Assembly (NCBI GenBank): GCA_963829525.1
Contig: CAWHIJ010000003.1
Span: 2,877,647-2,941,646, forward strand
DNA: 64,000 nucleotides
Reading direction: 5' to 3'
DNA from: an uncultured Actinomycetota bacterium
GTDB lineage: Bacteria > Actinomycetota > Actinomycetes > JAHEKZ01
In this document: piece after piece, positions 27,150-29,990 of the stretch
Layout of the letters: every line of letters starts with the position of its first letter
How positions within the stretch are numbered: the stretch's first letter is position 1
The notes under the pieces: generated by a model
Databases searched by the model: none
Told to the model about the DNA's origin: nothing
Seen by the model: the letters and a program-made list of their open reading frames with translations, nothing else
Translations under genes and position numbers: made by a program

Positions 27150-29990
27150 ATGACGTCCACCGTTGAGCCCGTACTCATCGAGCTGGGCGAGTCCGGGGCA
27201 TCCGGCTGCCTCACGGTCACCGACCCCGCGGGCGAGCAGGCCGAGGTCTACTTCAAGGACGGCTCGGTCTACTCCGTCTTCGTCCCCGGCCGCCGGCGCG
27301 CAGCTCGGCGCCCGGCTGATCGCGTCCGGCGACCTGTCCCCCGAAGCGCTCACCTCCGCGCTCGACGTCCAGACCAACGAGCTGCAGGGCTGGCGGCTCG
27401 GCGAGCTGCTGGTCCACCTCGGCTACGTCGAGCGTGCGGTGGTCGAGGCTTTCGTCGTCGAGCAGCTGCGTGACGCCATGGCCGCCCTGCTGGAGTGGCC
27501 GGTCGCCGCCCACAAGTTCCGCAAGACCAAGAAGACCAGGCAGGACGTCGCGCCGCCGATGACGGTGCGTGAGCTGCTCTCCGAGGTCGAGATGCGTCGT
27601 CACCGCTGGAGCTGAGCTGGTCGAGTCGATCGGCGGCGAGCGCGGTATCCCGATGCTGTCGGCGCGTCCGGACGGGGCCGCGGACGTCGTCCTGTCCAGC
27701 GCCGACTGGGCGCTGCTGTGCAAGGTCGACGGCAACCGCGACATCGCCGACCTCGCCGCCGAGTGCGGCTTCACCGTCTTCGAGGCGGCCCACGTCGTGC
27801 GTGCCCTGATGGACGGCGGACTCATCGACGTCGAGCTGCCCGACGACGAGCCGCGTTGCGTCCGTCACCTCGCTGGAGGACGCCCGCGGCAAGCGCCCGG
27901 CGTTCGAGCCAGCCCCAGACCCAGCCGGCGACGAGCTCGCCGGCGCCGTCAAGAAGGTCACCGCAGCCCTCGGCGACCTGTTCAAGACCGTCACGCCCCC
28001 GGGTGTCGGAACTTCGCTCGCGGACGCCGCGGCAGCTCTTGAGGCTGCCGAGCGACGAGCTGGTAGCCGCAGCACCGCCCGTCGACGACGACGCGCTGGC
28101 CGCTGAGCGCCGAGCTCCGCGAGGCCGAGGAGCGGCTCGCCGCCGAGGTCGAGGCCTGGCTGGAGCACGAGGCGTGGCTCACCGAGCAGGCGCGCGGCCG
28201 TCGAGGCGGACGCGTGGGCGGCGCACGCCGCATGGCTCGATGAGCAGCGGGTGGCGACCGAAGCCGAGGCGTGGCTGTCGCACTACCAGTGGCTGGAGGA
28301 CGAGCGCCGCCGTTGCGAGAAGACCGCCTGGGGCGAGCATCAGGCGTGGCTGGCCGAGCGCCAGGCTGCCGAGGCGACCCGCCTTGAGGCCGAGCGCAAG
28401 GCGATGGAGCACAAGGCCTGGAAAGACCACAGGCACTGGTTGAGCGCAGAGCGCAAGCGCGTCGAAGCTGACGCCTGGACCGACCACCAGACCTGGATGG
28501 ACGCCGACCGCGTCCGCGTCGAAGCCGAGGCCTGGGACGCCCACGCACTCTGGTTGGACGACTCGGCCCGCAAGCTGGCCGAGCGGCTCGAGCTTGAGCG
28601 CAAGGCGGTCGAGAACAAGGCATGGAAGGATCACAAGGCCTGGCTGACCGCAGAGCGCAAGCGAGTCGAAACCGACGCCTGGATCGACCACCAGACCTGG
28701 ATGGACGCCGACCGCGTCCGCGTCGAAGCCAAGGCGTGGGAAGCACACGTCAAGGTTCTCGAAGCTGAGCGTCGCTCCGTCGAGGGCGAGGCATGGGCCG
28801 CGCACACCGAGGTGCTGGACGCCGAGCGCTGCGAGGTCGAGGAGGAGGCCTGGCTCGTCCACGGCAAGTACCTCGAGTGGCACCGGAACGCGAACGAGGC
28901 TGCCGCGTGGTCCGACCACATCGTGTGGCTGGAAGGCGAGCGCGTTCGCGTCGAAGCCGAGGCGTGGGAGGCACATGCGGTCGTCGTGGCCGAAGAGGAG
29001 CGCCAGCGCGCGGATGCAGAGGCCGAGCGCCAGCGTGCAGAGGCGGAGGCTGCGCGCCTTGCCGAGCAGGCAGCCGAGCAAGACCGGCTCGAACAGGAGG
29101 CGCGCGAAGAGCAAGAGCGTCGCCGGCGCCGGCAGGAAGAAGCTGACCGCGCCGAGGCGGAGAAGGCCGCACGCCGGGAGGCCGAAGCCGCTGCCAAGCG
29201 CGAAGCCGAGGAAGCAGCCGCTGCAGAAGCCGAACGCCTCGAAGCCGAACGCCGCGAGGCCGAAGCCGCCGCCCAACGCGAAGCCGAGGAAGCAGCCGCT
29301 GCAGAAGCCGAACGCCTCGAAGCCGAACGCCGCGAGGCCGAAGCCGCCGCCCAACGCGAGGCCGAGGAAGCAGCCGCTGCTGCTGAGGCCGCACGTCTTG
29401 AAGCCGAACGAGAAGCAGCCGCCGCAGAGGCCGCGCGCCTTGAAGCCGAAGCGGCAGAACGCGCACGCCTCCAGGCCGAACGAGAGGCCGCCGCGGCAGA
29501 ACGCGCACGCCTCCAAGCCGAACAAGAGGCCGCCGCTGCAGAAGCGGCACGCCTCGAGGCTGAACGCCTCGAAGCCGCCGCCGAAGCCAAGCGCGCAGCC
29601 GAACGAGAGGCCGCCCGCAAGGCCGCGGAAGACGCCACCCAGGCTGCCGTTGCCGCTGCCGCTGCCGCCGAGCGTGAGCGGATGGTCGCTGAGCTGGCCG
29701 CCGCGGAGACGCCAAGCGTCGCGGAGTCTTTCGCCGACCTCGGCAACGACCCGGCCCCCTCTCCGGAGCCGATCGAGACCACCGAGGTCGTCGAGGTGTT
29801 CGAGCGTGAACCTGCGCCGAACCCTGGCCCGTCGGTCGATACCGCCGCACTCCTGCGCGAGCTCGCTAGCCTCGGCGGGTTCGGCGACAACCTGGGCGAC
29901 GCCCCGTCCACTGTCTCTTCCCCGGTAACGTCAAGCCCGGTTACCAAGGACACGGAAAAGAAGAAGAAGAAGGGCCTCTTCGGCCGGTAG
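27150..29990 (+). CDS. PATAN/DUF4388 + tandem MshEN-like motif protein with Trp/His helical repeats and long coiled coil; several frameshifts at 27295-28200
   Basis: SGCLTVTD...[22 protein letters not shown] and [52 protein letters not shown]; 14 AWxxHxxWL repeats; EAAR coil; [21 protein letters not shown]. Confidence 0.75.
28145..28985 (+). repeat. 14 x 19-aa coding repeat E-x2-A-W-x2-H-x2-(W/V/Y)-L, with a 204-bp super-repeat
   Basis: e.g. [41 protein letters not shown] at 28441 and 28645 is near-identical. Confidence 0.9.
29175..29410 (+). repeat. 78-bp (26-aa) coding tandem repeat in the Glu/Ala/Arg coil
   Basis: GA(A/G)GCCGAGGAAGCAGCCG at 29202, 29280 and 29358. Confidence 0.85.

Follow-up and report, generated by a model that had tools for sequence, protein, structure and literature searches.

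A 19-residue tryptophan/histidine repeat forms part of a predicted helical rod in a family of actinobacterial PATAN-domain proteins

The analysed stretch of DNA, 64,000 nucleotides from an uncultured Actinomycetota bacterium (contig CAWHIJ010000003.1) and referred to below as the window, contains a gene at 27132-29990 on the forward strand whose product carries 14 tandem units of a 19-residue Trp/His repeat (28145-28985, forward strand). The gene begins with a TTG codon at 27132 behind GGGAGGGGG and ends with a stop codon at 29988-29990. Its intact counterparts in genomes of the same genus are open frames of 872-936 residues (about 890 residues), the range being 872-968 residues when genomes of the same family are included. 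From the N-terminus onwards, the product comprises a PATAN/DUF4388 domain interrupted by an MshEN-like insertion, followed by a winged helix, the Trp/His tract, a Glu/Ala/Arg-rich helix, a short C-terminal motif and a Lys-rich tail with a GLFGR end. We tentatively read the tract as a hydrophobic, self-associating rod segment of a signalling scaffold rather than as a ladder of cofactor sites, and would put the chances of this reading slightly below even. The Trp/Ala/Leu face would hold two or more chains together in a non-heptad, right-handed geometry, the poorly hydrophobic Glu/Ala/Arg region would serve as a spacer, and the C-terminal tail would anchor the rod, either at the membrane or on a partner. 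The whole cytoplasmic protein would act as a scaffold responsive to cyclic di-GMP (c-di-GMP), possibly tied to RsiG-WhiG (anti-sigma and sigma factor) or type IV pilus control.

The consensus of the unit was (A/V)-E-x-(E/D)-A-W-x-(D/E/A)-H-x-x-W-L-x-x-E-R-x-x. Thirteen in-frame units, each anchored on A-W-x-x-H in the translation, extended from 28200 to 29006, and unit 1 (28145-28198) was encoded in a frame that differs from that of the other 13. Glu 2, Ala 5, Trp 6 and His 9 were found in all 14 units of the window. The distance from anchor to anchor was 19 residues in ten cases and 30 residues (19+11) in two, the 11-residue inserts being located ahead of units 5 and 8. Two successive 204-bp super-repeats (28371-28574 and 28575-28778) were 75% identical in DNA and 71% identical in protein. 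The initial annotation of this DNA, made from the sequence alone, had described 14 units of 19 residues with invariant Glu, Ala, Trp and His, together with two exact 11-residue inserts within a 204-bp super-repeat; the translation of the window bore out the former, and the spacing and super-repeat identities the latter. The 262-residue tract contained 23 Trp (9%) and 16 His residues, two Cys and neither Pro nor Phe, and the CxxCH motif was absent. Bulky hydrophobic residues made up 26% of the tract and charged residues 38%, with a net charge of -21. The AW..H pattern occurred 13 times; when the residues were shuffled 2000 times, the mean was 0.26 and the highest count 4. Tandem Repeats Finder reported for the tract a 57-bp period only (2.1 copies), and the DNA identity between units was 40-70%, apart from one pair at 95%.

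In the assembly, the gene is split over three frames by six +1 insertions, at approximately 27295/27297, 27612/27613, 27853/27854, 28052, 28112 and 28198/28200. Alignment with three intact orthologues of the same genus placed extra single bases at approximately 27295, 27613, 27854, 28112 and 28198. Wherever Logan contigs from four public DNA runs (two studies, of freshwater sediment and sediment metagenomes; contigs 90-99% alike) covered these five places or position 28052, they had one base fewer. Since the insertions are missing from both the orthologues and the contigs of the four runs, they are assembly errors, and the gene is intact in nature. Unit 1 is out of frame because of the spurious insertion at 28198/28200. 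The earlier statement that the first copy is displaced by one indel therefore holds for the frame change, which is real in the window, and not for the indel, which is an assembly error; a check against sequencing data had been proposed, and all six insertions were absent from the contigs of the four runs. A pseudogene was rejected, as all six changes were +1, were absent from orthologues and independent contigs, and left frame pieces approximately 80% identical to the orthologues.

A signalling-type protein had been proposed, and the N-terminus, a PATAN/DUF4388 domain with an MshEN-like insertion, agreed with that assignment. The PATAN/DUF4388 domain (Pfam PF14332; 27132-27612, forward strand) is read in two frames in the window, where the frameshifted pieces scored 19.5 and 26.1 bits against a gathering score of 25. 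Four intact orthologues were taken as reference proteins. In the intact orthologues, PF14332 was the sole Pfam match (35.8-39.6 bits, E 6e-10 to 9e-9), and by the Pfam gathering score in these orthologues the protein belongs to the PATAN/DUF4388 family. A scan of the window's own genome gave 25.8 bits for PF14332, neighbours in the same frame included. The N-terminal 236 residues of the orthologous module were modelled by AlphaFold2 from 66 sequences with high confidence (predicted local distance difference test, pLDDT, 92.6; predicted template modelling score, pTM, 0.87). The protein showed a cytoplasmic-type N-terminal domain and no signal peptide.

The helical insertion within this domain (27301-27465, forward strand; residues 57-111 of the orthologues) comprises two tandem 24-residue motifs and is a predicted c-di-GMP site, indicated by NCBIfam NF053729 and by a fold match. 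The window piece scored 36.6 bits (E 3e-9) and four relatives scored 30.3, 32.3, 36.6 and 37.8 bits (E 3e-7 to 1e-9), all of them below the cut-off of 38. The MshEN motif is given as RLGxx(L/V/I)(L/V/I)xxG(L/V/I)(L/V/I)xxxxLxxxLxxQ in two tandem copies joined by a 5-residue linker (PMC5013675). The second motif of the insertion fitted at every defined position, with Val replacing two Leu residues. The first motif deviated only in its initial Arg, for which the family has Gln, Pro or Ala, and the spacer between the motifs was 7 residues long instead of 5. Residues 50-109 of the model matched c-di-GMP-bound MshE (5HTL) with a root-mean-square deviation (rmsd) of 1.7-1.8 Å over 58 residues and 36% identity. 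Foldseek returned 5htl_A with a probability of 1.00 and an rmsd of 1.7 Å over 58 columns, but an E value of 0.13 (whole model), and VIA-align returned 5htl_B with a Z score of 6.0 and an rmsd of 1.8 Å for 58 aligned residues. The modelled insertion thus superposes on the four-helix fold of MshE 1-64, and the insertion is predicted to bind c-di-GMP. The winged helix (27662-27850, forward strand, converted from orthologue residues ~177-239) was indicated by VIA-align, in which model residues ~155-236 matched MarR/ArsR-type and GATOR1 winged helices with Z scores of 8.5-5.5; the same region had a weak Pfam match to HTH_47 (E 0.0037).

The unit was strongly conserved among relatives. A comparison of 218 units, loosely anchored and taken from 29 proteins, showed conservation of 91% for Glu 2, 98% for Trp 6, 91% for His 9 (with Glu in 8%), 67% for Trp 12, 78% for Leu 13 and 69% for Arg 17. 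The spacing was exactly 19 residues in distant relatives, and the 11-residue inserts were restricted to the window's subfamily. In a 10-sequence alignment of orthologues, the Trp, His, Ala and Glu residues were invariant in nearly every unit. Loss of Trp and His in homologues had been named beforehand as an observation that would count against the repeat; both residues were conserved wherever the repeat was present. A unit was 63% identical to its counterpart across species and 43-44% identical to different units, and because of this difference the diverged array is regarded as old and under purifying selection; a recent expansion does not fit. A further claim, that the repeat lacks proline, stood for the tract in the window and failed for the relatives: of 332 distinct units from 46 loci, 80 had Pro at unit position 3 or 4, and no other position had it more than 7 times. 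This placement indicates that the unit borders tolerate kinks or breaks.

The conservation was unevenly distributed along the array. Unit 3 was the best conserved (87%), units 8 and 12 were at 68-71%, and units 3 and 12 possessed additional invariant residues beyond the consensus. These differences, together with the identity that units retain across species, are what would be expected if differentiated units bound partner proteins along the rod, such as components of the pilus motor, the cell envelope or RsiG/WhiG. PATAN proteins work by protein contacts at the pilus base, according to a preprint on cyanobacterial PATAN regulators (10.1101/2021.06.11.447907), and the window's own genome encodes a WhiG/FliA-type sigma factor (284 bits) and eight secretion/pilus ATPase matches, with no match to flagellin (97% completeness). 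Still, we regard such a docking platform as unlikely: the neighbouring genes are housekeeping-like and the same in repeat-free clades, and no WhiG-type -10 box (GCCGATAA, at most one mismatch) was found in the 218-bp upstream region (26914-27131).

AlphaFold2 (10 sequences, the window tract first) returned one helix from residue 2 to residue 286 (pLDDT 84, pTM 0.27), in keeping with the helical nature originally claimed for the repeat. The tract is accordingly predicted to be a single continuous α-helix approximately 40 nm long. At 100 degrees per residue, the conserved Glu 2, Ala 5, Trp 6, His 9, Trp 12, Leu 13 and Arg 17 fell within one 140-degree arc. In the middle of the arc was His 9, with a Glu seven residues away in each direction (Glu 2 below, Glu 16 above); Ala 5 and Trp 12 occupied one flank, and Trp 6, Leu 13 and Arg 17 the opposite one. 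The two Trp residues (6 and 12), Ala 5 and Leu 13 would form a box around His 9, and a Glu would stand one heptad away at either end. The phasing within a unit was heptad-like (Glu 2, His 9 and Glu 16 at position a; Ala 5 and Trp 12 at position d). A canonical heptad coiled coil (3.5 residues per turn) was nevertheless rejected, as the 19-residue unit breaks the register every time and the hydrophobicity spectrum had no peak at 3.5. As the unit has 19 and not 21 residues, successive faces align only with a supercoil at about 3.8 residues per turn (19/5), or 3.75 (30/8) with the inserts, a geometry which would be that of right-handed, non-heptad coiled coils. Such a right-handed supercoil would depart from the relaxed helix about as far as a heptad coil does in the opposite direction. 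The spectrum had peaks at 3.08-3.18 and at 3.76-3.8, of similar low power; the 3.1-3.2 peak results from the W-x-x-H-x-x-W spacing.

The hydrophobic seam was confined, within the rod, to the Trp/His tract (26% bulky hydrophobic residues versus 6%). The adjoining Glu/Ala/Arg-rich helical region (28986-29690, forward strand, defined by composition and 78-bp tandem repeats) was 47% charged and 41% Ala, contained 0.16 i/i+4 ion pairs per residue, and had its strongest hydrophobic period at 4.34, which is not that of a coiled coil. Tract and adjoining region could alternatively form one monomeric α-helix, a stiff spacer setting the distance between sensor and tail, in which Trp-His-Trp and Glu/Arg contacts within the helix provide stability. 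The unbroken helix given by AlphaFold2 is compatible with this, as are the i, i+4 spacing of Arg 17 and the Glu 2 of the next unit, the ER/K-like composition of the adjoining region, and the ruler-like variation between clades, with 3-16 units or ERLEA-type repeats of varying length. The proportions of charged and bulky hydrophobic residues in the tract, though, are unlike those of known ER/K helices, and the assignment of the tract to the ER/K single α-helix class was rejected; the Glu/Ala/Arg region comes closer to it. A lone helix would require neither the strict period, nor the invariant small Ala beside Trp, nor a conserved face on one side, and a Trp exposed every 6-13 residues would probably render it aggregation-prone. 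We therefore consider a monomeric helix improbable.

The same conserved face bears on whether the tract binds ligands. In an oligomeric rod, the Glu-His-Glu stripe with two Trp residues could bind metal ions, b-type hemes or nucleotides (c-di-GMP), so that the assembly or stiffness of the rod would depend on the ligand. The placement of His 9 between a small Ala and two Trp residues, bracketed by Glu residues and close to Arg 17, would suit such a site. The 9% Trp is a costly composition, and the protein also contains the predicted c-di-GMP module, in a genome with 12 GGDEF matches. The His frequency of 100% in the 332 A-W-x-x-H-anchored units is circular, and looser anchoring gave the 91% His and 8% Glu mentioned above. 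Against a ladder of ligands, the net charge disfavours an anionic ligand such as c-di-GMP or the heme propionates, neither a single helix nor a two-stranded coil provides a hydrophobic pocket, and the His residues lie in a Glu-His-Glu stripe instead. With CxxCH absent and only two Cys in the tract, a c-type cytochrome or multiheme protein was rejected, also in view of the cytoplasmic-type N-terminus; this concerns covalent and not b-type heme. From helix geometry, a separation of 19 residues would put the sites approximately 2.8 nm apart, a distance too great for electrons to pass between hemes. The His-to-Glu exchanges of some homologues fit metal or polar contacts and not heme, whole clades of the family manage without the tract, and these repeat-free clades have the same neighbouring genes. 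On balance we find such a ladder quite unlikely. Were it real, metal ions would be more plausible ligands for the boxed His and its neighbouring Glu residues than heme or an anionic nucleotide, in view of the net charge and the occasional change of His to Glu. Similarly doubtful, to our mind, is a switchable version in which, in an oligomer, the 14 Glu-His-Glu sites, each held between two Trp residues, bind metals, hemes or c-di-GMP and their occupancy zips or unzips the 40-nm right-handed coil, thereby setting the reach of the scaffold.

The self-associating rod, which we prefer, has its own difficulties. The polar Glu-His-Glu centre of the conserved face and the net charge disfavour a simple hydrophobic core, and the spectral peak at 3.76-3.8 was no stronger than that at 3.1-3.2. 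Pro at positions 3-4 in so many units of relatives is unusual for a continuous coiled coil. The AlphaFold2 model is a monomer built from 10 sequences, and a lone long helix is also what the program returns for single α-helices. For the sensory end, the MshEN-like match falls just under the NCBIfam cut-off and motif 1 lacks its first Arg. Large clades of the family are devoid of the tract, which is therefore unneeded for the basic job of the family, and the conserved synteny among relatives may reflect inheritance rather than function.

Beyond the rod, a conserved short amphipathic C-terminal motif, D-T-A-A-L-L-R-E-L (29832-29882, forward strand), was found by alignment; its D, L, R, E and L columns were invariant, and it was present in 24 listed tails. 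The protein ends in a basic, Lys-rich tail with a GLFGR end (29958-29987, forward strand), encoded partly by (AAG)5. The strict tail pattern occurred in 24 of the 76 loci retained from the genome scan described below; 47 of the loci continue for over 4.5 kb past the N-terminal motif, and 21 of these have it. The tail may be a membrane- or partner-binding peptide.

Library searches agreed with the initial impression that the repeat belongs to no recognised family. Pfam and NCBIfam gave no family at E≤1 for 28200-29990, a PDB sequence profile search with the tract gave nothing at E≤1, and Foldseek against PDB with the tract model gave nothing at E≤10. The lack of a PDB profile or Foldseek match is expected, since the tract was searched as a lone helix. 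ESM Atlas had no usable match for the tract, and an 845-residue relative matched PatA_N clusters only, without functional names. An exhaustive phmmer search of 1.84 billion representatives with the whole tract as the query yielded 19 proteins at E≤1e-3, and a word-index search yielded 10 matches, all with PF14332. We inspected 17 database proteins, 12 among the 19 from phmmer and 5 from the word-index search. Most had the PATAN N-terminus or the C-terminal module of the family, none had another architecture, and two (P0023 and P0030) were garbled by frameshifts. Within these searches, the repeat occurs only in this PATAN-rod family. In the literature, searches on DUF4388 returned nothing on Actinobacteria, and those on PATAN with Streptomyces, Actinobacteria or coiled coils returned only a GTPase survey mentioning PATAN neighbours. 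Nothing relevant was found on 19-residue, nonadecad or right-handed coiled-coil repeats, or on WxxH and Trp-rich repeats.

A scan of one genome per species identified 213 stretches encoding a relative, of which 76 loci were kept; these are labelled Candidatus Nanopelagicales, Sporichthyaceae, Frankiales, Acidothermus and the cultured Longivirga aurantiaca. A tree was built from 66 N-terminal modules, its backbone being unresolved, and A-W-x-x-H units were counted in three forward frames. At least three units were present in 36 of the 66 rows, which fell into three supported clades (7 rows, 10 rows and 19 of 22 rows). The window belongs to the 10-row clade, whose members have 12-16 units, and the number among all carriers was 3-16. 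Repeat-free clades comprised 18 rows including Longivirga and 6 rows of Frankiales/Acidothermus; in repeat-free members, the place of the tract was taken by ERLEA-type or Pro-rich repeats. The clades found to carry the repeat all consist of uncultured organisms. Of 251 genomes sampled from the class, 120 had the N-terminal module at E≤1e-10; this count includes an unpublished genome (G050) as well as matches to a shorter paralogue. The shorter DUF4388 paralogue (E about 1e-27) also accompanied the long protein in most of the genomes that have the latter. One contig (L052) labelled as a Spirochaetaceae bacterium carried the gene inside an actinobacterial clade and was probably mis-binned.

In 72 of the 76 loci, an RsiG homologue was encoded upstream on the opposite strand; the four loci without it have less than 810 bp of upstream sequence. 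The window copy (25482-26072, reverse strand), whose transcription runs away from the PATAN-rod gene, is an RsiG-like c-di-GMP-dependent anti-sigma factor matching PF22802 in two stretches (E 4.3e-32). The gap between rsiG and the gene had a median of 1073 bp in 69 placeable loci. The position of rsiG, two genes upstream, is kept in 72 of the 76 loci and persistently links two predicted c-di-GMP effectors. In RsiG, c-di-GMP is bound by a pair of motifs located on an antiparallel coiled coil, and the protein that RsiG holds is the sigma factor WhiG (PMC8325347). The RsiG literature searched on neighbours, synteny and divergent genes contained no mention of the PATAN-rod gene. Between rsiG and the gene lies a β-keto acid cleavage enzyme (BKACE; 26069-26913, reverse strand, three overlapping open reading frames), identified by a match of PF05853 to the Longivirga counterpart (E 2.9e-87) and by tblastn upstream in 64 loci. 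Its three frames probably reflect further false indels. Downstream, on the same strand, a D-aminoacyl-tRNA deacylase (Dtd; 30616-31050, forward strand, PF02580, E 9e-44) was conserved in 40 loci. Because the loci come from related genomes, this gene order does not prove a shared function. Rfam detected no RNA family in the whole window, and thus no c-di-GMP riboswitch; no RNA run was listed among the sequencing runs holding the sequence. A second, shorter DUF4388 gene, frameshifted, was found elsewhere in the own genome (C3:1914980-1920663), approximately 2.4 kb from PilB-like/PilT-like ATPase genes. Its location fits the known link between PATAN and pili; PATAN domains are reported to bind the pilus motor PilB1/PilC and to carry an α-helical 'clip' insertion resembling the one in pilus ATPases (10.1101/2021.06.11.447907). 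In two repeat-free relatives, a THAP4/nitrobindin-type heme-binding β-barrel gene is situated approximately 4-7 kb downstream (L028, 15060-15692, reverse strand; L031, 14236-14817, reverse strand), an instance of conserved synteny without apparent connection to the repeat.

Several features of the assembly deserve mention. All six insertions fall inside 900 bp (27295-28200), and the remaining 1.8 kb of the gene has none. With false frameshifts clustered in this way, apparent pseudogenes elsewhere in the 3-contig genome need to be checked against short reads. In run X3, one short-read contig omitted 580 bases (28197 to 28778) and others jumped back 544 bases; the tract thus collapses or is mis-joined in short-read assemblies, and unit counts from such contigs are unreliable. 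A filter on GC content at third codon positions (GC3) did not separate real from spurious frames among the open reading frames of the window. Two antisense open reading frames, 28179-29525 (reverse strand, 448 residues) and 28631-30193 (reverse strand, 520 residues), were rejected as composition artefacts of GAG/GCC-rich repeats, because only the plus frame is conserved along with the N- and C-terminal modules.

With its 9% Trp, invariant Ala-Trp-x-x-His and 19-residue period across distant lineages, the tract marks an undescribed helical module in a widespread family without a studied member. Should the N-terminal module bind c-di-GMP, the family would constitute a new effector class in freshwater and sediment Actinomycetes, most of them uncultured. 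A right-handed Trp/His coiled coil, if confirmed, would widen the range of coiled-coil periodicities and cores and could be of interest for protein design. A switchable ladder, if real, would be a cofactor-gated cytoskeletal element of a kind not described in bacteria.

Helical repeat rods within signalling scaffolds are, as a general kind, already known. What is new is the 19-residue Trp/His unit and the PATAN-MshEN-winged-helix-rod-tail architecture, which are absent from Pfam, NCBIfam, PDB and the literature searched. The closest relatives in domain content are the cyanobacterial PatA-type regulators PixE and PixG, which have the same PATAN N-terminal domain (over the Pfam cut-off in our orthologues). 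A helical insertion built from two repeated helix pairs has been described for PATAN domains (10.1101/2021.06.11.447907) and is present in this protein too. Unlike PixE and PixG, the protein lacks a receiver domain, possesses a winged helix, a helical rod of approximately 500 residues and a basic tail instead, and belongs to an actinobacterial host. The two tandem 24-residue motifs of Vibrio cholerae MshE (5HTL) have counterparts here, the second fitting throughout and the first lacking its Arg; in this case, however, the pair is inserted in a PATAN domain and does not head a secretion ATPase, and its binding of c-di-GMP is a prediction. Non-heptad or right-handed coiled coils are represented by tetrabrachion (11-residue period), the stalks of trimeric autotransporters (15-residue period) and the peripheral stalks of rotary ATPases, and the Streptomyces proteins Scy and FilP form actinobacterial cytoplasmic rods with a 51-residue repeat. 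The tract would share with them a ratio of period to turns above 3.63 (19/5 = 3.8 and 30/8 = 3.75 here), but it differs from the non-heptad coils in its period, its Trp/His/Ala signature in place of aliphatic cores and its polar Glu-His-Glu line, and there was no sequence or fold match. ER/K single helices have in common with it a long uninterrupted predicted helix, whereas the tract is far richer in Trp and less charged. The 11/22-residue amphipathic repeats of apolipoproteins have Pro at unit borders, and Pro is mainly tolerated at unit borders here too; in contrast to apolipoproteins, the net negative charge and the polar centre of the face are unsuited to lipid binding. Finally, the RsiG motif on its coiled-coil helices is spaced i, i+4, i+7, i+11, i+15 (PMC8325347), exactly as E2-W6-H9-L13-R17. 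The residues are E/S/R/Q/D in RsiG and E/W/H/L/R in the tract, in two motifs versus 14 and with no homology, and the shared spacing is simply that of one helix face.

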